64,000 bases of DNA from Stieleria maiorica (GTDB lineage: Bacteria > Planctomycetota > Planctomycetia > Pirellulales > Pirellulaceae), in assembly GCF_008035925.1 (NCBI RefSeq), contig NZ_CP036264.1:2412443-2476442 (forward strand), given 5' to 3'. The notes under the pieces are model-generated. The model searched no databases, was not told where the DNA came from, and saw nothing but the letters and a program-made list of their open reading frames with translations. The position numbers and the translations under genes were made by a program. This document shows, in pieces, positions 6,171 through 64,000 of this stretch (positions are counted from its first letter, which is position 1; each line of letters begins with the position of its first letter).

Positions 6171-7322
6171 GTGCCGAAACAGGGAGAGAATGCCGATCGA
6201 CAGGCCGGAAGCCTTTCCCATTTTTTCCCCGTTGTGATGCCGTATTACGACCTCAACGAACTTCGCCGAGCTGCGATGGGGCGGTGGGGCGAGATTTTGA
6301 TTTCCGCGGGCATCCCGGCAGCAGTCTTGGATGGTCGGAACCATCCCTGTCCCAAGTGTGGCGGGCGTGATCGATTCGCGGCATTTGGGGATCTGCAACA
6401 GCGTGGGGCGGTCCATTGCCGCCGTTGTTTTACCCGCGGCTGTGCGATCCGCCCGGGGGATGGGATCGCCACGCTGCGCTGGTGGCTGGGGTGTTCGTTT
6501 GCCGAATCGCTGGCTTTCCTGGCCGATGTGGTGGGCGTCCGGCCGGCCGTCGGCAGCCCCCGCAACCGACCGGCTGCGACTCCATCGTCCGGGTCAGCTT
6601 CATCGTCCTGCTCGGCGGCTGCGGTCCCCATCGACCAGTCTGCCGAAGCGATTGACAAGCACACCGCCTTCGCACGCGACGCCTATCACCGCATCGATGC
6701 TGCCACGCGTCGCCGGCTGGCCGAACAACTGACGGTCTCTCAGCACGCCTTACAGAGGCTCCGGGTCGGTGTGACCGCTGATGGCAACGGTTCCACATGG
6801 CCGATGCGAAATGAACACGAGCAAGTGATCGGCGTTCGCATCAGCGGTTTACCGTGGACGCAAAAACGAAACTGCAAATGGTCCCGCCGCGGCAGCCAAA
6901 GCGGGATCTTTATCGCCCGCCCAACCACCGGACCCGGCAGCACGAGAGGAATTCCGGAGACGCTGTATGTCACCGAAGGCGCCTCGGACACCGCAGCTGC
7001 GATCACGTTGGGCTGGTGGGCAATCGGAAGGGCCAGTTGCAGCGCGTCGACCTTTTTCGTCGACCGCTACATCCACCGACACCAGCCTCAACGACTTGCG
7101 ATCGTCGCCGACAATGATGAAGCCGGACGAAGCGGGGCCAAGCGATTGGCCAAGTCACTGTGCCAAACCCTGCCACGGTCCTTGAGCCACGTCGACGTGA
7201 TCGCTCCACCCGCACCGGCAAACGATCTCCGCGTCTGGGCGGCGATGTCTCCGATCAATCTGGCCGACGCCACAACGATCGCCACGATCCGATCGAAGAC
7301 GCAGAAGACGTTTCAGTTTTGA
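6171..7322 (+). CDS. phage/plasmid-type DNA primase: primase zinc-ribbon (CxxC-x17-CxxC with PCPxCGGxDRF) + Toprim domain
   Basis: [29 protein letters not shown] matches the Prim_Zn_Ribbon motif of P4-alpha/T7-gp4-type primases. The downstream [21 protein letters not shown]...[22 protein letters not shown] is a Toprim (E...DxD) fold. No helicase or D5_N domain follows. The true start may be Met23, near 6237. Confidence 0.6.
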
Positions 7323-7328
7323 GTTTCA

Positions 7329-7390
7329 GGAGTTGGGAGTTGGGAGTTGGGAGTTGGGAGTTGGGAGTTGGGAGTTGGGAGTTGGGAGTT
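7329..7390. repeat. heptanucleotide microsatellite (GGAGTTG)x~9
   Basis: A perfect tandem 7-mer array begins 7 nt after the primase stop codon. An inverted copy, (CTCCCAA)n, lies at 63526-63552. Confidence 0.95.
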
Positions 7391-7437
7391 TCATTTTTCC
7401 GCCCCCATTTTTCTGTCAAATCTCAGCTGCTACTCGC

Positions 7438-15476: not shown

Positions 15477-15601
15477 CGGACGCTTGCCGGAGGAGGTGGG
15501 GATGGGAAACGGCAGGGATCGTATTCTACAACGACGGCAGCGTGTATGTTGTGGAGACCTGCCCTTCTTTGTCCCGCCCCACCTGCCGGAATGAACCTGC
15601 G

Positions 15602-17113
15602 ATGAACCGTCTGCTTCAATTGTTCACAGCGATCTTGCTGCTGGGTTTGCCCCTTGGTCCAACCGTGGCCGCCACGGAAGTAAACGGGCCGACGGAAGCG
15701 AAACGGCCGATGAACGTGCTGTTCCTCATTTCCGATGACCTCACGTACACCGCACTGTCGTGCTACGGAAACACGGTCTGCCAAACGCCCAATATCGACG
15801 CGTTGGCTGCCAGCGGAACGCGATTCACCCGGGCCTACTGCCAGGGAACCTACTGCGGACCCTCGCGGGCATCGTTCATGTCCGGGTTCTATCCCCACGC
15901 GACGGGCGTGCTGGGATACAAGAACCCGCGGGCACAAATCGGCGACCGGGCGACGTGGTCCCAGCACTTCAAGAACAACGGCTACTACGCCGCGCGGGTC
16001 AGCAAAATCTTTCACATGGGCGTTCCCGGCGGGATCGAGGACCACGGCCCGGGCCGCGATTACAACGGAGCCGACGACGAACTGTCCTGGACCGAACGTT
16101 TCAACAGCCCCGGCCCGGAATGGCGCGCTCCGGGTGATGGCGAGACACTGGAAGGCAATCCCGACGGCAAGAAACCCGTGGTCGGCGGCAACACCTTTGT
16201 CGTCGTGGAGGCCGATGGGGACGACATGGTTCATAGCGATGGCAAAACGGCAAAGAAGGCGTGTGAACTGATTCGTCAGCAACGCGACCGACCGTTTTGG
16301 TTGGGTGTCGGATTCGTGCGGCCACACGTCCCCTTCGTCGCGCCGAAGTCCTACTTTCCACCGTACAAGCCCTACAGCAAACACGCCCTGCCGCCCAAGA
16401 TCGAAGGCGACTGGGACGACATCCCCAAGGCCGGTATCAATTACAAAACCAGCCCAAACATGAAGATGGATCTGCGACGACAAAAGAAAGCCGTCGGAGG
16501 CTACTATGCGTCGGTCGCGTACATGGATGCCCAGGTCGGCAAGGTGCTCGATGCGCTGAAGGCATCCGGACAGGAAGACAACACGATCGTGATCTTCACC
16601 AGCGACCACGGGTACCATTTGGGCGAGCATGATTTCTGGGCCAAGGTTTCCTTGCGTGACGAATCGGCGGGGGTGCCGCTGATCATTCGGGTTCCCGGAA
16701 AGCAGCCGGCGGTCTGCCACAGTTTCGTCGAATTATTGGACCTGTATCCGACCGTCGCGACGCTCTGCGGATTGGACGTTCCGAAGCATGTGCAAGGCAA
16801 AGACATCTCGGCGATGTTGGACGACCCCAATCACCAAGTGCGCGAGTTCGCATTCAGCGTCGCGCCGATGCGGAAAGGATTCTTGATCCGCGAGGATCGA
16901 TTCGCTTTCATCCAATACGAAGAAGACGCATCGGCAGGGACGGAGTTGTTTGACACGCACGCCGATCCGCAGGGCTACGACAATCTGGCCGGCGATGATC
17001 GCTATCAGGAAGTGCTGGCACGCATGCAATCCACTTTGACCCGAAAACTGGCCGAGGTTCGCGACAATGATCTGTCGCTGCAAAGCAGCGACCGGGAATC
17101 GCCTAAAGGCTAG
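15602..17113 (+). CDS. sulfatase (iduronate-2-sulfatase-like), secreted
   Basis: The signal peptide MNRLLQLFTAILLLGLPLG is followed by LFLISDDL and the sulfatase signature C-G-P-S-R (CxPxR) in YCGPSRASFMSG. FTSDHGYHLGEH is also present. The ORF track begins 60 nt upstream; I took Met21 as the start. Confidence 0.85.
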   Translation: MNRLLQLFTAILLLGLPLGPTVAATEVNGPTEAKRPMNVLFLISDDLTYTALSCYGNTVCQTPNIDALAASGTRFTRAYCQGTYCGPSRASFMSGFYPHATGVLGYKNPRAQIGDRATWSQHFKNNGYYAARVSKIFHMGVPGGIEDHGPGRDYNGADDELSWTERFNSPGPEWRAPGDGETLEGNPDGKKPVVGGNTFVVVEADGDDMVHSDGKTAKKACELIRQQRDRPFWLGVGFVRPHVPFVAPKSYFPPYKPYSKHALPPKIEGDWDDIPKAGINYKTSPNMKMDLRRQKKAVGGYYASVAYMDAQVGKVLDALKASGQEDNTIVIFTSDHGYHLGEHDFWAKVSLRDESAGVPLIIRVPGKQPAVCHSFVELLDLYPTVATLCGLDVPKHVQGKDISAMLDDPNHQVREFAFSVAPMRKGFLIREDRFAFIQYEEDASAGTELFDTHADPQGYDNLAGDDRYQEVLARMQSTLTRKLAEVRDNDLSLQSSDRESPKG

Positions 17114-17210
17114 ACACCAGCGGTTGCCGGATCCCTTTCGACTTGAGTCCGTGCCAGTTGCTTGATCGACACTAAGTGACCGGCGATAATCGGCTTGTCC
17201 CCCAGTCCCC

Positions 17211-17337
17211 TACCGGCCTGTTGATTTAATCCGATCCTACGTGGGATCAGCCGTTTCGCGCGAGCGTACGGGTATCGAAACAGCAAAAGATCGCACCGGT
17301 GCCCGTAGGCTCGCGCCATACGGCTGATTAAATCAAC
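17211..17337. repeat. ~125-nt palindromic structured repeat element (copy 1)
   Basis: TACCGGCCTGTTGATTTAATCCGATCCTACGTGGGATCAGCCGTTTCGCGCGAGCGTACGGG...CCCGTAGGCTCGCGCCATACGGCTGATTAAATCAAC has terminal arms GTTGATTTAATC/GATTAAATCAAC and internal arms CGAGCGTACGGG/CCCGTAGGCTCG. A second copy lies at 49935-50060. Confidence 0.85.
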
Positions 17338-17363
17338 TGTCCCCTACACCCCAGGCACTTCTC

Positions 17364-18713
17364 ATGGATCGCCGAAAGTTCATTGCCGCATCCACGCTCG
17401 CCGCATCTGCCGTTGCCAGTCGCCATGCCTATGCCGCCGCCGGCGACAAGAAACGCCGCGTCGGTTTGATCGGGTGTGGCTGGTACGGGAAGTGTGACCT
17501 GCTGCAGTTGATGAACATCGAACCGGTCGAAGTCGTCTCGCTGTGCGACGTCGATTCGAACATGTTGGGCGAATGTGCGGATTTGATAGCCTCCCGCCAG
17601 GTCTCCAAGAAACGGCCGCGGACCTATGGCCAATACACCGACATGCTTGCCGAGAAAGACTTGGACATCGTGCTTGTCGCAACGCCCGACCACTGGCATG
17701 CGCTACCGATGATTGCGGCGGTCAACTCCGGTGCCGACGTGTATGTGCAAAAACCGACCGGCGTCGATGTGCTAGAAAGCAAAGCGATGTTGGACGCGGC
17801 TCGCGAAACTGGACGCGTGGTCCAAGTGGGAACGCAACGCCGTAGTACGCCGCACTTGATCGAAGCGAAGCAACGTGTGGTCGATACAGGCTTGCTCGGT
17901 GACGTCGCGCACGCTGAAGTGTGTTGTTACTACCACATGCGAGCGAAGAAGAACCCGCCGGATACCGCGCCACCGGCGTATCTGGATTACGAGACCTGGA
18001 CGGGGCCGGCACCGATGCGACCGTACAACGAATTGGTCCACCCGAGATCCTGGCGAGCGTTCATGGAGTACGGCAACGGGATCGTCGGTGACATGTGTGT
18101 CCATATGCTGGACATGGTGCGATGGCAACTGGGCCTGGGATGGCCGCAGCGAATCAGCAGCAGCGGCGGCATCTACGTCGACCATGATTCCAAGGCGAAC
18201 ATTTCGGACACCCAGTCGGCTCGCTTCGAATTCGACGAACTGGACGTCAACTGGACACACCGCAGCTGGGGCAACGCGCCCGATCCCGATTGGCCGTGGG
18301 CGGGGATCATCTACGGCGACCGGGGCACGTTGAAACTGGATGTGCACAAGTACGAATTCACGCCCCGCGGGGGCGGCCAGAAACTGACCGGCGAAAAGCT
18401 GATCGAAACCGACAAGTACCCCACCGACGTCACCGATCAAAAGGATTGGCGGTTGGAACTGCACGTCGCGTCGGCGATACGCGGTCATATGCGAGACTTT
18501 CTTGATGCGATCGACAAGCGGTCCAAGCCGGTCGCCGACATCCTGCAGGGGCACATTTCCAGTGCATCCTGCATCATGGCGAATGTCTCGATGAAACTCG
18601 GACGGTCATTAGAATTTGATCCCGCCACCCACATCGTCGTTGGTGATGCCGAAGCGACCGACAAGCTGAAACGACCTTATCGAAAGCCTTACGCGCATCC
18701 CTCCGAAGCATAG
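17364..18713 (+). CDS. Gfo/Idh/MocA family oxidoreductase with Tat signal peptide
   Basis: MDRRKFIAASTLAASAVA is a twin-arginine signal. VGLIGCGWYGK is the Rossmann motif, and ATPDHWHA is the Gfo/Idh/MocA consensus. Confidence 0.85.
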   Translation: MDRRKFIAASTLAASAVASRHAYAAAGDKKRRVGLIGCGWYGKCDLLQLMNIEPVEVVSLCDVDSNMLGECADLIASRQVSKKRPRTYGQYTDMLAEKDLDIVLVATPDHWHALPMIAAVNSGADVYVQKPTGVDVLESKAMLDAARETGRVVQVGTQRRSTPHLIEAKQRVVDTGLLGDVAHAEVCCYYHMRAKKNPPDTAPPAYLDYETWTGPAPMRPYNELVHPRSWRAFMEYGNGIVGDMCVHMLDMVRWQLGLGWPQRISSSGGIYVDHDSKANISDTQSARFEFDELDVNWTHRSWGNAPDPDWPWAGIIYGDRGTLKLDVHKYEFTPRGGGQKLTGEKLIETDKYPTDVTDQKDWRLELHVASAIRGHMRDFLDAIDKRSKPVADILQGHISSASCIMANVSMKLGRSLEFDPATHIVVGDAEATDKLKRPYRKPYAHPSEA

Positions 18714-33820: not shown

Positions 33821-33960
33821 GCCCAGGCAAGAGTCATGCGATTCCTAAACCGACTCGTTAGCGTAGGGCATTTTCAGGCCGCCGGCGGGGCGCAGCGTTC
33901 CCCAGAAAGACGAAAACTTTGAAGACGTCGGCTGTCCGGCGCGGCGACGCCACACGGGGC

Positions 33961-33989
33961 GCCGAAAGCCTTGGCGGCTTCCGCTACGA
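33961..33989. repeat. REP-like module (GCCGAAAGCCTTGGCGGCTTCCGCTACG) copy
   Basis: It is identical to the module at 1172-1200 and, in reverse complement, at 43112-43140. It lies upstream of the NfeD-flotillin module. Confidence 0.6.
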
Positions 33990-38325: not shown

Positions 38326-38404
38326 CGCGGAAAAGGGGTCAGGTACCAAAAATGCGAAGCACCCTTCGGGCCATTTGGTTTTTGGTACCTGACCCCTTTT
38401 CCGC
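38326..38404. repeat. perfect 70-nt hairpin element (copy 1)
   Basis: GCGGAAAAGGGGTCAGGTACCAAAAATGCGAAGCACCCTTCGGGCCATTTGGTTTTTGGTACCTGACCCCTTTTCCGC has perfect ~26-bp arms. Confidence 0.9.
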
Positions 38405-38721: not shown

Positions 38722-38833
38722 CTAAAAGGGGTCAGGTACCAAAAATGCGCGAGCGAAAAGGGGTCAGGTACCAAAAATGCGAAGCACCCTTCGGGCCATT
38801 TGGTTTTTGGTACCTGACCCCTTTTCGCGCTCC
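38722..38833. repeat. hairpin element copy 2 plus an adjacent half-copy
   Basis: The half element AAAAGGGGTCAGGTACCAAAAATGCG (38724-38749) is immediately followed by a full hairpin (38753-38828) identical to copy 1. Confidence 0.9.
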
Positions 38834-42901: not shown

Positions 42902-42986
42902 GGATGGGTGGCCGAGTGGTCGAAGGCACTGGTCTTGAAAACCAGCGTAGGGCAACCTACCGTGGGTTCGAATCCCACCCCATCCG
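42902..42986 (+). tRNA. tRNA-Ser (anticodon UGA)
   Basis: The acceptor stem is GGATGGG/CCCATCC. The D-arm is GCCGAGTGGTCGAAGGC. The anticodon stem-loop is CTGGT-CTTGAAA-ACCAG, giving TGA. A long variable arm (CGTAGGGCAACCTACCG) is present. The T-arm is GTGGG-TTCGAAT-CCCAC and the discriminator is G. CCA is not encoded. Confidence 0.85.
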
Positions 42987-43015
42987 CTGCTTCTTCTTTC
43001 GGCGGCCCCTGGATA

Positions 43016-43140
43016 GTCGCCGTCCTCTCCGAGGTCGGCGTCAGGGAAGAGCTTCGCTTTTCGAGGGCGCCGAGTTCGGAGAACACGGCGACATTCGGCC
43101 GCAATGCGTAGCGGAAGCCGCCAAGGCTTTCGGCTCCCCG
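43016..43140. repeat. composite REP-like element downstream of tRNA-Ser
   Basis: The inverted pair GTCGCCGTCCTCTCCGAGGTCGGCG / CGCCGAGTTCGGAGAACACGGCGAC is followed by the module GCGTAGCGGAAGCCGCCAAGGCTTTCGGC. Confidence 0.7.
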
Positions 43141-44921: not shown

Positions 44922-44979
44922 TGCCAGCCCGAAGCGTCAGCGAGGGGCGCCGCGTGTCCCTTCGCTGACGCGTCGGACA

Positions 44980-45054
44980 GTCGCCGTGTTCTCCGAACTC
45001 GGCGCCCCGAAGGCGAAGCCTTTGCTCCGCGCCGACCTCGGAGAGGACGGCGAC
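44980..45054. repeat. REP-like hairpin element (GTCGCCGTGTTCTCCGAACTCGGCG...CGCCGACCTCGGAGAGGACGGCGAC)
   Basis: It is a 25-nt imperfect inverted repeat with a ~25-nt loop. It lies between the convergent 43317-44921 (+) and O-methyltransferase (-) genes. Confidence 0.8.
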
Positions 45055-45091
45055 TGTCTAGCTCCGCCGAAAACGAAGCTGCGGTCGATGC

Positions 45092-46132: not shown

Positions 46133-46222
46133 CGCGGTGCTTTGGGCTTTGCCTACTGTAGATGGAAAGGTTTGTGTCGTCGCGTAACTGTCAGTTGCGT
46201 ACTCGACGATGCATTGCCAGTG

Positions 46223-46297
46223 TCGCCGTGTTCTCCGAACTCGGCGAGCGCGAAAAAGCGAAGCTTTGCCCCGCGCCGACCTCGGAGAGGACGGCGA
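46223..46297. repeat. REP-like hairpin element, second copy flanking the O-methyltransferase gene
   Basis: The arms are the same as at 44980-45054 and in the same orientation. Confidence 0.8.
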
Positions 46298-46305
46298 CTG
46301 TCCAG

Positions 46306-48108
46306 CTAGTTTTCCGAATCGATCAACGATTCAACAACCGATTCGAGTTGCAGCCCGGTAAAGTCCAACGCTTCGACCTTGCCCTGTTGGTTGAAGATCG
46401 CGACGAATGGCAACGACACCAAACCGAACTTGGACGCGATCGGGTTGCCCTGGTCCGACGTCGCCGAGGAAACGCTGCGATAGCTGGGGAATCCCAGGTC
46501 ATTCTTCGCCAGAAACTCTCCCAACGGGGCCTGCTCGCCGTCCAAGTTCATCCCGACGATCGCGATTTTATCGGGGTGCCGGGATTGGATCTCCTGGAGC
46601 ATCGGGATGATTTGCAGCGAGGGCGGGATCATCACCGCCCAAAACGGCATCAGCACAACTTTGCCCTTGGTGTGGCTGGACGAGATGCTGTTACCGTCCA
46701 GGGTGGGCAGGTGTGCCAACGCGTCCAATGAGGTCCCGATGACGTCGCGGCGGGCTTCCATCGCCGCTTTGGCTGTTGCGATTTCGCCGGCGGTCGCCGA
46801 GTCGGCGTCGGCGAACCGTTCGCTCAAGATGCGGAACGTTTCCTGGACAAACGCGTCACGACCGGCGGCTTCAAATTGCAGTGCCGACGTGCCCAAGAAT
46901 TCGACGGTGTTCATATCGGGAGCTTCGCCGGTCAAGGTCGTCACGGCTTCGGTCCAACGCTCCAGGGCCACGTTCTCGTTTTCCAATATCTCTCCGATCA
47001 ACCGTGTGGCGGAATCATACTTGGCCGTCCCGGCGGCGTCGGCGGCCACTTGTGCGATCATCTTGTCGGGGGAGTTGCCGTACAGTTCCAGGATTTTTTC
47101 ACGCACCTTGGCCGATTGGTCCACCAATCCGTAATCGGCCAGCACTTGCCTGGCTTCCGCCATCATCAACACGGCCGGGATATCCGGTGTCGCACTTGCC
47201 GTCATGCCTTGGATCAGCGAGACGATTTCTTGGGCGGCTGATTCCCGGCCGGCACGCAGACCGTCGATGGCGAATCCGATCAACACGATTCGGCTGTCAC
47301 TGGCGATCGTCGATTCTGGCGACGATAGGTTCTGCTTGGCCAAGGCTTCGAGCGCCTTGGCCGACTGGATGTCGCCCATCGCCGACAGATGTGACAGCGC
47401 CTGCAACTGACCACGCAATCCCGCGGTGCGTTGTGCATCGGTGGCGTTGGGATGCTCCAGAAGCCGGACGGCAGCTTGCAGTTTTCCCTTGACCAACTGC
47501 TGCATCATTTCATTGGCTTGGTCGGCGTCTTGCAGTTGGTTGCGCTGGCGGGCCAACATTTCCATGTCGCGATCGGACTCCTCCAGAAACGTCATCAATT
47601 CGTCCGCCGTCAGATCGCCGCGCAGCTCACGCTCGGCTGCGACAGCGTTTGCGCCGCCGGTCCCGATCATCTCGGGGATGCCCGCCGGAATGGTGTTCGA
47701 CTCGGCCAATTCGAAACTCGGCGGAGTGGTGTTGGGGGCGCCGGCATTAGAACCTGGACCGGTTGCCGCCATCGCAGGGTCGGCTGAGTCGGCGGCCGCG
47801 ATCCGCGGGCCGGCCAATTCCTCTCGCTCTGCCGTGGTCGGCGGCGCTGTTCTCTGCGCGGAAGTCGCGTCGACGCCATTTGCTGACGGGTCGGAGACGC
47901 TGCGATCCGAATCGCCACTCTCCGTCACGGCACCCCCGGCCGGAGGGTTTGACGCCGCGTCAGGATCGCCCTGCGAGCAGCCCGGGACGCACAAACAGCC
48001 CAGAACACAGAGGGAAATGGTCAAACAGGCAACAGCGGACAGGTTGCCCCGTTGAACGGAAAGCGGACGAATTCGCATGGCGGTAAGAGGGTTCGGCGAC
48101 GGGATCAA
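46306..48108 (-). CDS. lipoprotein with C-terminal TlpA/ResA-like thioredoxin fold lacking the CxxC active site
   Basis: A lipobox-like sequence and low-complexity region are followed by helical repeats. The C-terminal GKVVLMPFWAVMIPPSLQ...FPSYRS...VSLPFVAIFNQQGKV matches the TlpA fold, but the WCxxC motif is replaced by WAVMIPPS. Confidence 0.5.
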   Translation of the reverse strand: MIPSPNPLTAMRIRPLSVQRGNLSAVACLTISLCVLGCLCVPGCSQGDPDAASNPPAGGAVTESGDSDRSVSDPSANGVDATSAQRTAPPTTAEREELAGPRIAAADSADPAMAATGPGSNAGAPNTTPPSFELAESNTIPAGIPEMIGTGGANAVAAERELRGDLTADELMTFLEESDRDMEMLARQRNQLQDADQANEMMQQLVKGKLQAAVRLLEHPNATDAQRTAGLRGQLQALSHLSAMGDIQSAKALEALAKQNLSSPESTIASDSRIVLIGFAIDGLRAGRESAAQEIVSLIQGMTASATPDIPAVLMMAEARQVLADYGLVDQSAKVREKILELYGNSPDKMIAQVAADAAGTAKYDSATRLIGEILENENVALERWTEAVTTLTGEAPDMNTVEFLGTSALQFEAAGRDAFVQETFRILSERFADADSATAGEIATAKAAMEARRDVIGTSLDALAHLPTLDGNSISSSHTKGKVVLMPFWAVMIPPSLQIIPMLQEIQSRHPDKIAIVGMNLDGEQAPLGEFLAKNDLGFPSYRSVSSATSDQGNPIASKFGLVSLPFVAIFNQQGKVEALDFTGLQLESVVESLIDSEN

Positions 48109-48794: not shown

Positions 48795-49745
48795 ATGAAA
48801 TTCACTCGACGCGACGTCCTGGCGGCTTCGGCCGGACTTTTCTCGATGGCGACCTGTTCGTCTGCGTTCGCTTCGACCGAGGCGAAACGCAAATTCACCG
48901 TTGACCTCCGCTGGGGCAGTATCGGTGTCAAGGCGAACCAGAACGAAGCGATCGAATTGGCGGCCAAGCACGGATTCGAATCGGTCGCAGCGTCACCACA
49001 GGAACTGGAAAAACTGTCCGATGCCCAAAGCGAGGCGTTGGTCGGGACCCTGAAAGAAAAAGGCTTGGTCTGGGGCTCCTCGGGCCTGCCCGTCGATTTC
49101 CGCAAGGACGACGCAACCTTCAAACGCGACTTGGGGGCATTGCCCGCCCAAGCGGCCGCGTTGCGTCGCGCCGGTGTGGACCGAATGGGGACTTGGATCC
49201 GCCCCTGTCACGACGACCTGACTTACGTCGCCAACTTCAAGCAACACGCCGACCGGCTCCGCCAATGTGCCAAAATCTTGAAGGACCATGGCCTGCGTTT
49301 GGGGCTGGAATACGTCGGCACGGCGACCCTGCGCAATTCGAAACGATTCCCGTTCATTCACACGATGCGCGAGACGGCCGAACTGCATTCGGCGATCGGC
49401 GTGGACAACATGGGCTTCGTGCTCGACTCCTGGCACTGGTACACCGCCGGCGAAACCGCCGACGACATCCGCTCATTGAATGCAAACCAAATCGTCGGCT
49501 GTGATTTGAACGACGCCCCCAAGGACGTGCCGGTCGACCAGCAGATCGACAACCGACGCGAACTTCCCGCGGCAACGGGCGTGATCGACGTGAAATCCTT
49601 CCTGCAGGCACTGATCGATGTCGGCTATGACGGTCCGGTCCGCGCCGAACCGTTCAACCAAGCACTCAACCAGATGGACAACGACGACGCCTGCGAGGCG
49701 ACGTCCAAAGCGATCCGAAAAGCGATCGCGCTGGTCGAGGGATAG
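48795..49745 (+). CDS. sugar phosphate isomerase/epimerase (xylose-isomerase-like TIM barrel), Tat-secreted
   Basis: MKFTRRDVLAASAGLFSMA is the Tat signal. The length and HxxE...D.WH motifs match the family. Confidence 0.75.
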   Translation: MKFTRRDVLAASAGLFSMATCSSAFASTEAKRKFTVDLRWGSIGVKANQNEAIELAAKHGFESVAASPQELEKLSDAQSEALVGTLKEKGLVWGSSGLPVDFRKDDATFKRDLGALPAQAAALRRAGVDRMGTWIRPCHDDLTYVANFKQHADRLRQCAKILKDHGLRLGLEYVGTATLRNSKRFPFIHTMRETAELHSAIGVDNMGFVLDSWHWYTAGETADDIRSLNANQIVGCDLNDAPKDVPVDQQIDNRRELPAATGVIDVKSFLQALIDVGYDGPVRAEPFNQALNQMDNDDACEATSKAIRKAIALVEG

Positions 49746-49764: not shown

Positions 49765-50235
49765 GTCGCCGTGTTCTCCGAACTCGGCGTGTTCGACCTC
49801 GTTCCAAGGCTCCGCCTTGGAACGCGATCCTGATGTGGCTCGGCCACATGGTATCTGGCGACGCGAGGCGGAGCCTCGGGGGCTGTGTGTTCCCAGGCGG
49901 GAGCCCGGAACAAGGGGGACGTGGGCCGCTCGCTTACCGGCCTGTTGATTTAATCCGATCACACGTGGGATCAGCCGTTTCGCGCGAGCGTACGGGCTTC
50001 CAATACCAAGAAAACGAACTGGCGCCCGTAGGCTCGCGCCAAACGGCTGATTAAATCAACAGGACGTTACGCGTCCCGCTGGCATGCGCCTCTGCGCCTC
50101 GTTCCAAGGCTCCGCCTTGGAACGCGATGCCGATGTGGCTCCGCCACATGCCCTCTGGTGACGCGAGGCGGGAGCCTCGGGGACCGTGTGTTCCCAGGCA
50201 GGAGCCCGGGAACAAGGGAACAGCGTGTCGCGGAG
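49765..50235. repeat. cluster of nested REP-like hairpins surrounding the second copy of the 125-nt palindromic element
   Basis: Two copies of [TTCCAAGGCTCCGCCTTGGAA hairpin + ATGTGGCTC(C/G)GCCACAT hairpin + GGTGACGCGAGGCGG..GTGTGTTCCCAGGC.GGAGCCCGG..AACAAGGG] lie at 49795-49925 and 50098-50230. They flank the 49935-50060 palindromic element. A half REP (GTCGCCGTGTTCTCCGAACTCGGCG) sits at 49765. Confidence 0.8.
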
Positions 50236-50238
50236 CTG

Positions 50239-51324
50239 TTATGCGGCCTTGCGTAGACGACGGGGTGCTTCGATGCGTCGGCGGACGCTGGCCAACGGCC
50301 CGATTTCCGACGGGGCCGCCTCGGCGTACCAAGCCCTCTGGGCGATCGAATCAAGAATCCGCTCGGCGATCGTGACCGCTCGGGCACCGGCCAATCCGCT
50401 GACCGTCGGCGAAATCCCGGATTGGATGCTGATCACGAAGTCGTGAAGTTCATCCAGGATGGCGTTCCGCGACTCGAGTTGTTTAGTTTCCAGTTGCAGA
50501 TGGTCGGCGAACAATTCGTCGGCATATCCGAGCGGATTGTCGGTGGCTTGGTCCAGGTCGAACGCGCGGTCGACCAACGATTCGCTGGGACGAACGGCGT
50601 GCAGGGCGGGGCCGGAAAAATCGATTTCGGCAAAACCGCCGCATCCATACACTTGCATCTGTCGCGCCGGAGCGGGGCTGACCCGCGACGCTTTGAGATT
50701 CGCGACCAGACCGCAGGCGAATTCCAGCCGGGCTTCGGCCAAATCTTCGTGGTCGCTGACGACCGCCAGTCCGCTGGCCGAGACGTCGGCGACGGCGGCA
50801 TCGGTCATCGAACAAACCAGGTCGATGTCGTGGATCATCAGGTCCATCACCACGCCGACGTCCAGGCAACGACCGGGAAAGCGTGAGGCGCGGACGGCTT
50901 CGACGTACTTCACATCGACACCGATATCGCCCAGCGCGGTGAAGGCCGGGTTGAACCGTTCCACATGTCCGACTTGCAGCGTCAATCGTCGCGAGGCGGC
51001 CAGCATCGCCAGTTTGTCGGCATCGGCCGCGGTCGTCGCCAGCGGTTTTTCGACTAGCAAGTGCTTGCCCGCTTTCAACAGCGTCGTCGCGATCTCGGCA
51101 TGAGCGTCGGTCGGCGCGGCGATCACGGCGGCATCGATCTGGTCGATGCAGTCGCGGTAATCGGCAAAGGTGGGGACGTCGAACAGTTTGGCCGCGTTTT
51201 CTCGGGCGGCTTCGATCGGATCGCTGATCGCGACCAATTGAGCGCCATCAACGCTGCCGAGAAGTTTGGAATGAATTCGGCCCAGATGGCCGGCACCGAT
51301 GACGGCGACGCGCAAACGACTCAT
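50239..51324 (-). CDS. Gfo/Idh/MocA family NAD(P)-dependent oxidoreductase, translationally coupled to lpxA (GnnA-like candidate)
   Basis: MSRLRVAVIGAGHLGRIH is the Rossmann motif and EKPLA is the family consensus. The start ATG overlaps the lpxA stop by 4 nt (ATGA). Confidence 0.8.
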   Translation of the reverse strand: MSRLRVAVIGAGHLGRIHSKLLGSVDGAQLVAISDPIEAARENAAKLFDVPTFADYRDCIDQIDAAVIAAPTDAHAEIATTLLKAGKHLLVEKPLATTAADADKLAMLAASRRLTLQVGHVERFNPAFTALGDIGVDVKYVEAVRASRFPGRCLDVGVVMDLMIHDIDLVCSMTDAAVADVSASGLAVVSDHEDLAEARLEFACGLVANLKASRVSPAPARQMQVYGCGGFAEIDFSGPALHAVRPSESLVDRAFDLDQATDNPLGYADELFADHLQLETKQLESRNAILDELHDFVISIQSGISPTVSGLAGARAVTIAERILDSIAQRAWYAEAAPSEIGPLASVRRRIEAPRRLRKAA

Positions 51325-52133
51325 GCTGCTTTCTTTCTCCGTTGGTCTTGACCGCGTCCGTGACGTCCGCTGCACGAACGATCGACACAATCAAAAAGGT
51401 GTTTGATGACGGGACGAATCGGGCCTTGGGAGTAGACGATTTCGCGAGCCTTGTCGACACCGACGCGGGCTCGGTACAACAACTTGAACGCTTGCGTCAG
51501 CACCGCGATGTCTTCGGCGGTGTACCCGTGACGTTTCAGACCGATCGTGTTGACGGCGCGTGGTTTGGTCGGCTGGCCGTCGACGATCGTGTAGGGCGGC
51601 ACGTCGTGCAGCACCCGGCTCATCGCGCTGACAAAGCTCAACTGTCCGACGCTGGCGAAGTGCGACACGCCGACGCCACCGGCGATCGTGACGTCGTTTC
51701 CGACCCGGACGTGTCCGCCCAGCATGCCGTTGTTGGCGATCACGATGCGGTCGCCGACCTTACAATCGTGCGCGACGTGTGTGCCGGCCATGAAGTAGTT
51801 GTCGTGCCCGATCTCGGTCACGCCGTCTTCCTTTTCGGTCGCCCGATTGACGGTGCAGTGTTCGCGGAAAACGTTGTTGTCGCCGATGACCACTTTCGTC
51901 GGCGTGTCCTTGTAGCTTGTGTCCTGCGGGTGGCCGCCGATCACCGTGCCTTGAAAAATGTGGTTGTCATCACCGATCGTCGAGTGGCCGGTGATGACGA
52001 CGTGCTCTTCGATGAGCGTGCCGTCACCGATTTTTGCATCCGGCCCGATCACAGAAAAATGGCCGATTCGAACGCCGTTTCCAAGTTGAGCCCGCGGATC
52101 AACAACGGCTGTTTGAGCGATGACAACACTCAT
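51321..52133 (-). CDS. lpxA: acyl-ACP--UDP-N-acetylglucosamine O-acyltransferase
   Basis: Left-handed beta-helix hexapeptide repeats are present. The N-terminus IAQTAVVDPRAQLGNGVRIGHFSVIG matches LpxA, as does the C-terminal alpha-helical domain. Confidence 0.9.
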   Translation of the reverse strand: MSVVIAQTAVVDPRAQLGNGVRIGHFSVIGPDAKIGDGTLIEEHVVITGHSTIGDDNHIFQGTVIGGHPQDTSYKDTPTKVVIGDNNVFREHCTVNRATEKEDGVTEIGHDNYFMAGTHVAHDCKVGDRIVIANNGMLGGHVRVGNDVTIAGGVGVSHFASVGQLSFVSAMSRVLHDVPPYTIVDGQPTKPRAVNTIGLKRHGYTAEDIAVLTQAFKLLYRARVGVDKAREIVYSQGPIRPVIKHLFDCVDRSCSGRHGRGQDQRRKKAA

Positions 52134-61664: not shown

Positions 61665-61740
61665 TGCTCCTCGTTCCAAGGCTCCGCCTTGGAACGCACT
61701 GTCGGTGTGGCTCCCGCCACACGCGGCCGGGCTGCCAGCG
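61665..61740. repeat. REP-like hairpin pair (TTCCAAGGCTCCGCCTTGGAA + GTGTGGCTCCCGCCACAC)
   Basis: It belongs to the same family as the 49795 and 50098 copies. It lies between the convergent DegT (+) and SGNH hydrolase (-) genes. Confidence 0.7.
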
Positions 61741-61886
61741 GCGGACACGTACGATGGCCCTTCCGGGCCGTCGCTGGCCAGACATGTACGATGGCCCTTC
61801 CGGGCCGTCGTTGGCGGGACCATCCGCTTACCACCACTTTTCGCACCTGATCATTCTGCCCCGTATCATTCTGCCATCCTTCCCCA

Positions 61887-63521: not shown

Positions 63522-63525
63522 TGAC

Positions 63526-63552
63526 TCCCAACTCCCAACTCCCAACTCCCCC
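63526..63552. repeat. heptanucleotide microsatellite (CTCCCAA)x~3.5, an inverted copy of 7329-7390
   Basis: CTCCCAACTCCCAACTCCCAACTCCCCC lies directly after a stop codon. Confidence 0.9.
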
Positions 63553-63558
63553 GTCTCC

Positions 63559-64000
63559 ATGCCTGCTGATCGAATCCTTTTCGAATCCCATTCACACACG
63601 CCGCTCTGCAAACACGCCGACGGAATGCCGACCGAATACGCGGCGGTCGCCGAAGCGCGTGGTCTGCTGGGCATGCATGTGACCTGCCACAACCCGATGC
63701 CCGACGGCTTCTCCTCCGGCGTCCGGATGGCGGAATCGGAATTCGACCAGTACGTCGACCTGGTGGCCGAAACGACGGACCAATGGCGTGGCCGCGTCGA
63801 TGTGCGTTTGGGATTGGAAGCCGATTACTTCGAAGGCCACGAAGCGTATTTGGAGAAACAACTTTCCAGCGCGGACTTTCATTTCGTGCTCGGGTCGGTG
63901 CACCCGCAAATCGGCGAGTTCCGCGAAACGTATTGGCAAGATGACTTGGTCGAAGTCCAACGCATTTACTTCAACCTGTTGGCCAAGTCGGCCGAGACGG
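63559..64000 (+). CDS. PHP-domain histidinol-phosphatase-like protein (HisJ/HisK family), 3'-truncated by the window edge
   Basis: MPADRILFESHSHTPLC carries the HxH motif of the PHP domain. The frame stays open to the window end and is not in the ORF track because no stop is reached. Confidence 0.55.
   Translation, partial: MPADRILFESHSHTPLCKHADGMPTEYAAVAEARGLLGMHVTCHNPMPDGFSSGVRMAESEFDQYVDLVAETTDQWRGRVDVRLGLEADYFEGHEAYLEKQLSSADFHFVLGSVHPQIGEFRETYWQDDLVEVQRIYFNLLAKSAET

Follow-up and report, generated by a model that had tools for sequence, protein, structure and literature searches.

Two short, strongly hairpin-forming elements, here called copy A and copy B, lie in the 64-kb window, that is, the whole stretch of Stieleria maiorica DNA that was analysed. 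Both, at about 130 bp, are very probably non-autonomous miniature inverted-repeat transposable elements (MITEs), and their 18-bp ends are those of IS1182-family insertion sequences (IS) belonging to a clade with a wide distribution in Planctomycetota and Lentisphaeria. They are ordinary mobile DNA and not a structured RNA gene. The ends are defined, 4-bp target-site duplications flank both copies, the orthologous site of copy A is empty in a close relative, related elements are dispersed in multiple copies, and the same ends delimit transposase-encoding elements. These observations bear out the first of two readings that had been offered from the sequence alone, a MITE or a stable structured RNA, and suggest mobilisation in trans by an IS1182-family transposase.

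The two copies are 88-91% identical and, as had been noticed, differ chiefly in the apical loop of the hairpin (Table 1). Each contains the 12-nt arms GTTGATTTAATC / GATTAAATCAAC, located at 17220-17231 / 17326-17337 in copy A and at 49944-49955 / 50049-50060 in copy B, as well as the inner arms GCGAGCGTACGGG / CCCGTAGGCTCGC claimed for both, and the self-complementary insert reported in the left half is a side hairpin found in each copy. The sequence-only reading had placed the loci correctly, but the left end of copy A is at 17214 and not at 17211, and the right end is 6 nt further out. Its suggestion of TA/TAC flanks also came close: the real duplications are 4 bp long, CTAC and TTAC, and TAC belongs to the duplicated target outside the element. 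A setting between convergent or divergent genes holds for copy B, which occupies a repeat-filled spacer between convergent genes, but not for copy A, whose neighbours are co-directional (both +). At 130 and 129 bp, both copies stay below the roughly 300-500 bp that bounds the size of MITEs. Neither copy has any coding capacity, and the overlapping open reading frames are spurious in this genome of 60% GC. At the right outer end of copy A, TGTCCC stands in place of AGGCCG, leaving 15/18 matches with the left end.

Table 1. Coordinates in the window of the two elements, their parts and their neighbours, followed by two further sequences
Feature	Position	Strand	Remark
Sulfatase gene, upstream neighbour of copy A	15542-17113	+	
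Copy A, left target-site duplication CTAC	17210-17213		identical 4-mer at 17344-17347
Copy A, complete MITE, 130 bp	17214-17343	.	
Copy A, left 18-bp terminal inverted repeat (TIR) CGGCCTGTTGATTTAATC	17214-17231	+	fits the family consensus from 110 ends and the ends of IS1182-family elements
Copy A, side hairpin GATCC-TACGTG-GGATC	17233-17248		conserved in the 12-copy Stieleria subfamily
Copy A, main internal hairpin, REP-like core	17249-17325		variable apical loop at about 17273-17299
Copy A, right TIR	17326-17343	-	12-nt core perfect; outer 6 nt degenerate
Copy A, right target-site duplication CTAC	17344-17347		
Gfo/Idh/MocA oxidoreductase gene, downstream neighbour of copy A	17364-18713	+	
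Xylose-isomerase-like TIM-barrel protein gene, left of copy B	48795-49745	+	
Copy B, REP-like target, left half GCCGCTCGC	49925-49933		
Copy B, left target-site duplication TTAC	49934-49937		identical 4-mer at 50067-50070
Copy B, complete MITE, 129 bp	49938-50066	.	
Copy B, left TIR CGGCCTGTTGATTTAATC	49938-49955	+	
Copy B, side hairpin GATC-ACACGTGG-GATC	49957-49972		
Copy B, main internal hairpin, REP-like core	49973-50048		
Copy B, right TIR, reverse complement CGTCCTGTTGATTTAATC	50049-50066	-	17/18 against the left end
Copy B, right target-site duplication TTAC	50067-50070		
Copy B, REP-like target, right half GCGTCCCGCTGG	50071-50082		
Second Gfo/Idh/MocA protein gene, right of copy B	50239-51390	-	
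Family end motif: CGGCNTGTTGATTTAATC			
Empty spacer of S. mannarensis: ...ATCGGCTTGTCCCCCAGTCCCCTACACCCCAGGCACTTCTCATG			

The presence/absence comparison that had been proposed as a check finds the orthologous site without copy A in four further genomes of Stieleria. The order of the sulfatase and oxidoreductase genes is kept in these relatives (S. mannarensis, S. neptunia, S. magnilauensis and the RhM MAG), and the oxidoreductase of the window shares 96% identity with its S. mannarensis JC639 counterpart and 92% with those of the other three. The TIM-barrel protein encoded beside copy B is 100% identical to an entry under the name Stieleria maiorica. The S. mannarensis JC639 spacer, ...CCCCCAGTCCCCTACACCCCAGGCACTTCTCATG, holds a single CTAC and is 134 bp shorter than its counterpart in the window, which corresponds to the 130-bp MITE plus one CTAC. 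In S. neptunia, S. magnilauensis and the RhM MAG, a different REP-like hairpin occupies the spacer and the MITE is absent. An origin of the empty site by deletion from an occupied ancestor is contradicted by these three genomes, since they are unoccupied as well, and the comparison indicates that copy A was inserted in the S. maiorica lineage after its split from S. mannarensis. The opposite picture, just two copies conserved at orthologous positions, which the sequence-only reading had held up against mobility, is contradicted by the same absences. Copy A can be parsed in a second way, because a 9-bp direct repeat, GTCCCCTAC, is present at its flanks and coincides with the degenerate right outer end: an element of 130 bp with a 4-bp duplication and one of 125 bp with a 9-bp duplication each restore the S. 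mannarensis site. For copy B, an intact paralogous target with a single TTA(C) occurs at positions 724-742 of locus L041, and the nearest of the contigs retrieved stops 9 nt past the flanking gene; a scan of the window for an uninterrupted copy of this target found none.

Target-site duplications, a further check that had been asked of the mobile reading, are found at both copies and throughout the family. From 110 ends, an 18-bp TIR consensus, CGGC[C/G/T]T-GTTGATTTAATC, was derived, in which conservation runs 6 nt past the 12-nt core at either end. Identical 4-mers at a distance of exactly 6 nt from the cores are present in 31 of the 56 copies that have both exact 12-nt cores, against about 0.2 expected (56/256). 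Repeat lengths of 2, 3, 4, 5, 6, 8 and 9 bp were tried at every offset from 0 to 11. With a 4-bp repeat, the next best offset reaches 4/56, and lengths of 3, 5, 6, 8 or 9 bp nowhere exceed 3/56, while 2-bp repeats score high at several offsets, short words matching by chance. A 2-bp TA duplication of the IS630-like kind was rejected, since many duplications are without TA (TGAC, GTGA, CTTG). The 4-bp repeat at offset 6 alone stands out among repeats of at least 3 bp; chance matches are too frequent for 2-bp repeats to be decisive. When metagenome copies are included, the 4-mers are identical in 41/78 and one base off in 16 more. Because the 4-mers vary among copies (TGAC, TTAC, GTGA, CTTG, TGAA), they represent duplicated target and not element sequence. 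About a quarter of the family copies have no recognisable duplication. Reverse-complement flanks, with inverted sequence extending past the 4-mers, occur in four full-length IS copies and three MITEs and could be due to insertion without duplication, IS-mediated inversion or assembly artefact. An integron attC site, considered because of the GTT...AAC ends, was discarded: the core sites are wrong in order and sequence, and nothing integron-like lies nearby.

The same ends also delimit larger elements. A metagenome scan with a single 18-nt end yielded at least 120 loci, and many of the matches are found some 30-120 nt away from the end of a contig, where a repeat that breaks assemblies should fall. 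In about ten of these loci, two inverted ends identical in kind to those of the MITEs are 1.76-1.9 kb apart and enclose one open reading frame of 527-545 aa with the Pfam domains DUF772, DDE_Tnp_1_6 and DDE_Tnp_1. The product matches the NCBIfam equivalog model NF033551 'IS1182 family transposase' with 361.9 and 367.3 bits (cut-off 270) and the IS5 model NF033581 weakly. These full-length elements are flanked by 4-bp duplications of their own, namely GTAA (L151), CTTG (L167), TCCA (L084) and CTAA (L190). Searches by tblastn with the L151 protein located the gene in 17 among the at least 120 metagenome loci, at 25-70% identity (43-70% for full-length copies), and no IS1182-family transposase gene in the 64-kb window or in the 54 MITE-bearing genome loci described below.

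The association holds when the search starts from the protein. A protein-similarity search with a threshold of E ≤ 1e-30 gave over 2,000 clusters; of the best 120, the majority come from contigs 1.7-2.0 kb in length, and one bears the name 'IS1182 family transposase [Planctomycetota bacterium]'. The DNA of two clusters was examined, and the IS copies retrieved in this way by protein similarity alone (L196 and L198-L200) carry CGGC[T/G]TGTTGATTTAA at both ends. The copy in a Planctomycetota MAG measures 1794 bp and those on three other contigs 1816 bp, and L199 has a GTGA duplication within GGTGGC-GTGA-GCCACC. Annotated plasmid-borne IS1182-family transposases are about 30% identical to the proteins of the PVC clade, and alphaproteobacterial ends (..GAGGCTGTGTAAAAAC and ..GAGCCTGTGTGGAAAC) have the GCYTGT motif alone in common with CGGCCTGTTGATTTAATC. 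Given this low protein identity and the little end sequence in common, the PVC elements form a distinct clade of the IS1182 family. Within the clade, 12-15 nt of the ends are invariant across four classes and across transposases of just 43-70% identity, a degree of conservation that the exact-core search patterns overstate. Such invariance of ends across diverged transposases is unusual.

To map the distribution of the short elements, one genome per bacterial and archaeal species was scanned with the pattern GTTGATTTAATC-N(80-110)-GATTAAATCAAC. Of the resulting 54 loci, 52 belong to Planctomycetota or Lentisphaeria, the former represented by Pirellulaceae, Planctomycetaceae, Schlesneria, a 'Phycisphaera' MAG, Scalindua and Kuenenia; the remaining two are low-GC and chance-like. 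Several genomes contain 3-8 copies each. A BLAST search of a plasmid collection with the MITE gave no relevant match, and a one-end scan of viral contigs gave 15 single-end matches, mostly low-GC and consistent with chance; the one candidate pair inspected, L062, is not an IS. Grouped by interior sequence, the 81 short elements that were compared make up 19 clusters, of which 11 are multi-copy, and the ends alone are common to all. The subfamily of the window consists of 12 copies at unrelated loci, found in Stieleria only (two in the window, five in S. magnilauensis, two in S. mannarensis and three in the RhM MAG) and 81-88% identical to copy B.

This subfamily bears on whether the short form has itself been mobile. 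Each copy could instead be the in-situ remnant of a separate full-length IS whose interior was deleted, the short form never having transposed; ends and duplications would then look alike, and elements of intermediate size, with 232-689 bp between the ends, do exist among the metagenome loci. We regard this as very improbable. All 12 copies, in four Stieleria genomes, have the same 94-nt interior, side hairpin and junctions, which independent deletions would not reproduce, and the subfamily copies L015 and L016, which differ at just 2-3 positions, indicate recent copying of the short form. Moreover, the interior shows no similarity to IS sequences; it matches host REP-like hairpins, and such palindromes are abundant in the genome. 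The core of the window subfamily is about 74% similar to a free-standing hairpin of S. magnilauensis (L015 4614-4692) that has no end within 160 bp, and the hairpin that occupies the sulfatase-oxidoreductase spacer in S. neptunia, S. magnilauensis and the RhM MAG recurs as the core of another subfamily (L030, L035). On the evidence of its interiors, the short element is best described as two ends around foreign DNA and not as a deletion derivative of an IS. The whole element folds as one long hairpin because its interior is a host REP-like hairpin set between two IS ends.

The abundance of REP-like palindromes and the likeness of the MITE interior to free-standing ones could also be taken to mean that the elements are of the REP/REPIN type, spread by a RAYT (an IS200/IS605-like tyrosine/HUH transposase) and not by a DDE transposase. 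REPINs likewise consist of two inverted arms forming a hairpin (PMC3733652). The ends argue strongly the other way, being those of DDE-encoding IS1182-family elements and beginning with CGGC..., without the GTAG or CGTC tag of REP families. HUH/Y1 transposases (IS200/IS605) are not known to leave target-site duplications, whereas 4-bp duplications are the rule here. No RAYT gene was noticed in passing. Spread by a RAYT is thus extremely improbable, and the elements are better read as MITEs with IS1182-family ends.

A structured RNA, the second of the readings made from sequence alone, deserves the same scrutiny. The elements might be a non-coding RNA or a cis-regulatory hairpin whose fold is under selection, copy A as an element of the oxidoreductase 5'-UTR and copy B as a terminator or RNA stabiliser, functions that a hairpin can have between convergent genes. 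The predicted hairpins are indeed very stable on either strand (-64 to -78 kcal/mol; z-scores between -5.6 and -8.5 relative to dinucleotide-shuffled sequences). Furthermore, a promoter-like match at 17162-17190 lies upstream of copy A and the start codon of the oxidoreductase gene 20 nt downstream of it, so copy A is probably transcribed into the 5' UTR. The evidence from the family nevertheless makes this reading most unlikely. At gathering thresholds, Rfam reports nothing but one tRNA in the 64 kb, and at E ≤ 1 over 17150-17400 it returns noise matches to eukaryotic families. In the 12-copy alignment, 1/39 pairs covaries (TIR position 5) and the covariation term is unfavourable (+0.97), although most of the 39 pairs are invariant and thus uninformative, and interiors cannot be aligned between subfamilies. 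Family members are alike in their ends alone, their interiors being unrelated; they occur in both orientations, even within the same target (L005 versus L012, L015 versus L016), and beside unrelated genes. The orthologous oxidoreductase gene does without the element in four relatives, and on the + strand the main hairpin lacks the trailing U-run of a terminator. Copy A may affect the oxidoreductase gene, but such an effect would follow from the insertion and would not explain why the element exists. As a lesser variant, copy A may have been co-opted as a 5'-UTR hairpin controlling that gene; secondary co-option of individual copies is documented in other bacterial MITEs (PMC3733652).

As mobile elements, the MITEs show a marked preference in their targets. 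Reconstructed empty sites have the symmetric consensus gC-NTAN-Gc, and the six bases to either side of the duplication form on average 2.96 of 6 complementary pairs, against 1.52 +/- 0.15 at random sites in these loci (never above 2.0 in 1000 trials). Five or six of the pairs form at 11/53 sites, against 0.33 expected. The random-site control replaced one with shuffled partners, which was weak because many flanks are the same repeat families. Copy B interrupts CGC-TTAC-GCG within the REP-like unit GCCGCTCGC-TTAC-GCGTCCCGCTGG, and most subfamily copies in S. magnilauensis, S. mannarensis and the RhM MAG split the target GCCGCTCGC-TNAC-GCGTCCCGCTGG in both orientations, the central 4-mer being TGAC, TCAC or TTAC. 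The target of copy A is non-palindromic. Some IS1182-family members are reported to target palindromes, and the model proposed for IS1272 includes a pathway that duplicates the hairpin loop alone (PMC5678879). We raise, as a speculation that we think clearly less probable than not, that this IS1182 clade picks its targets by DNA structure, namely the 4-nt loop of extruded hairpins or cruciforms, that MITEs have repeatedly been made by enclosing host hairpins, and that REP-like arrays and this transposon family feed each other across the PVC superphylum. If this were true, natural insertions with clean loop duplications and empty sites would make structure-dependent targeting of the IS1272 type directly testable.

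The following route would account for these features. A MITE may arise when two IS ends come to enclose a host REP-like hairpin. The DDE transposase, encoded elsewhere by a full-length IS of the clade, would bind the two ends and move the MITE in trans to a new site by cut-and-paste chemistry, with cuts staggered by 4 bp, and repair of the gaps would generate the 4-bp duplication. The transposase would prefer short GC-rich palindromes, in many cases REP-like repeats between genes, and insert at their central 4 nt, possibly recognising the target by its structure. Copy B would have entered a REP-like unit in the spacer between convergent genes in this manner.

These elements matter for annotation, mobile-DNA biology and Stieleria itself. 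A false structured-RNA candidate is removed, and hairpin repeats of 105-130 bp that break planctomycete metagenome assemblies find an explanation. For mobile-DNA biology, the family has well-defined ends of 18 bp, a duplication of 4 bp and an empty site on record, and its natural palindrome-centre insertions can be used to study target choice of the poorly characterised IS1182 transposases. In Stieleria, a sulfatase-rich locus contains a species-specific insertion that begins the 20-nt approach to an oxidoreductase gene and may alter the expression of that gene. Conservation of the ends across four PVC classes and the apparent targeting of hairpin loops are the points of most note. A full-text literature search for the 12-mers had an unrelated E. 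coli paper as its sole match, and we found no paper linking IS1182, MITEs and planctomycetes or describing this MITE family. In every sequence feature by which bacterial MITEs are recognised, the elements belong among them; IS1182-derived MITEs were already known, and the family itself appears to be new.

Several known systems resemble these elements in part. With the IS1182 family (NF033551; e.g. IS1272 of staphylococci), they have in common a partner with DUF772 and DDE_Tnp_1_6 domains and the use of palindromic targets, but the elements of the window are gene-less. IS1272 is reported to insert without duplication, replacing the target stem-loop (PMC5678879), whereas a 4-bp duplication is the rule here. 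A precedent by description is provided by the ISMac2-derived MITEs of Methanosarcina acetivorans, which are non-coding, 160-169 bp long, bounded by 25-26-bp TIRs and present in 7-14 copies, one class having 4-bp direct repeats (PMC3852290). In kind and in IS family they agree with the elements of the window; their host is an archaeon, whereas the present family has 18-bp ends, host REP-like hairpins as interiors and a range of Planctomycetota and Lentisphaeria. Bacterial MITEs in general are 70-300 bp long, with 15-30-bp TIRs, non-coding, gene-adjacent, capable of forming robust hairpins and mobilised in trans (PMC3733652). Correia/NEMIS, ERIC, RUP and Nezha elements have these general features, as do the elements described here, but are unrelated in sequence and depend on another transposase family; interchangeable hairpin interiors and palindrome-centre insertion set the present family apart.

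Outside the MITEs, IS903 (IS5 family, IS903 group) has an 18-bp TIR, GGCTTTGTTGAATAAATC, that matches the MITE end CGGCTTGTTGATTTAATC at 13/18 positions in the same register from the tip. According to its ISfinder description, IS903 makes 9-bp duplications, against 4 bp here, and the MITE is not a member of that group. As a candidate partner, IS903 was rejected despite its similar terminal repeat, tblastn with its transposase finding nothing in the window or the loci. IS1182 and IS5 transposases are related, as the weak NF033581 match shows, and the resemblance of the ends hints at shared ancestry within the IS5/IS1182 group. IS1397 and ISKpn1 (IS3 family) insert at the centre of intergenic palindromic repeats, in the REP loop, with a duplication of 3-4 bp. 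This palindrome-centre insertion with a short duplication is the habit seen here, but these elements are autonomous, with an IS3 transposase, TG...CA ends and enterobacterial hosts. Finally, REPINs and REP sequences with their RAYTs are likewise hairpin-forming, intergenic and multi-copy, and both the interior and the targets of the MITE resemble REP-type palindromes. REPINs differ in having Y1/HUH transposases and no known target duplication, whereas the present family combines 4-bp duplications with DDE-type ends.

The spacer that holds copy A, the MITE between the sulfatase and oxidoreductase genes, is occupied differently in relatives. In S. neptunia, S. magnilauensis and the RhM MAG, a Stieleria genome, the orthologous spacer carries a different hairpin repeat, GTGGGATGGCTTCCAGCCTGTC...GACAGGCTGGAAGCCTCTCCCAC (loci L192-L194, about 2860-2920), and the elements of another MITE subfamily (L030, L035) have this same hairpin as their interior. 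Because of this identity, MITE cores and host hairpins appear to be interchangeable. Copy A itself is bracketed by a direct repeat that exceeds the 4-bp duplication of the family by 5 bp (see table), and with which its degenerate right outer end coincides.

Duplication is not the only type of flank in the family. In four full-length IS copies (L196, L159, L188 and L200) and three MITEs (L156, L172 and L019) the flanking 4-mers are reverse complements rather than direct repeats, and the flanking sequence beyond them is inverted too. Such flanks may have arisen by insertion at the centre of a palindrome without duplication, by inversion between IS copies or as an assembly artefact.

Copy B, the second MITE of the window, is bracketed on either side by a composite palindromic repeat, whose two copies are 300 bp apart, and the 493-nt spacer of the convergent genes around it is almost entirely taken up by stacked repeats. 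The window holds other repeats as well. Each member of the 72-nt pair has perfect inverted arms of 26 nt, GAAAAGGGGTCAGGTACCAAAAA...TTTTTGGTACCTGACCCCTTTTC, and 56 kb separate the GGGAGTT array from its reverse complement. The GGCGAGCCGAAAGCCTTGGCGGCTTCCGCTACG repeat, with the same sequence, also adjoins a MITE in S. mannarensis (flank of L037), which makes it a family common to different Stieleria species. Searches of the window with Rfam and ARAGORN gave no match besides a tRNA-Ser gene, directly after which lies one copy of the REP-like hairpin family.

Repeats and tRNA gene in the window
Feature	Position	Remarks
9-bp direct repeat GTCCCCTAC	17205-17213 and 17339-17347	brackets copy A
Composite palindromic repeat, ~125 nt, CCTCGTTCCAAGGCTCCGCCTTGGAACGCG...GGAGCCTCGGGG...	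49797-49920 and 50097-50221	a third, incomplete copy at 61669-61743
REP-like hairpin family, GTCGCCGTGTTCTCCGAACTCGGCG and its complement	43009-43101, 44970-45063, 46221-46307, 49765-49796	four intergenic spacers
72-nt repeat pair	38330-38401 and 38755-38826	identical, 425 bp apart
Repeat GGCGAGCCGAAAGCCTTGGCGGCTTCCGCTACG (n=3)	1166-1203, 33955-33988, 43102-43140 (-)	
Heptamer GGGAGTT, tandem array	7315-7398	about 10 units; reverse complement at 63524-63565
tRNA-Ser, anticodon UGA	42902-42987	Rfam / ARAGORN

Nested or tandem arrangements were observed at two retrieved loci: in L006 (181-310) a complete MITE is directly abutted by a solo end, and L017 (4352-4479) contains an internal duplication that takes in part of a third end. 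Members of the family apparently insert inside or beside each other. Finally, the MITE interior of L027, from a MAG labelled Candidatus Kuenenia, is nearly the same as those of L007, L034 and L053, from the Planctomycetaceae MAG STL-PLA44. These MAGs are assigned to different classes, and the near-identity of the interiors could be the result of horizontal transfer or of mis-binning.
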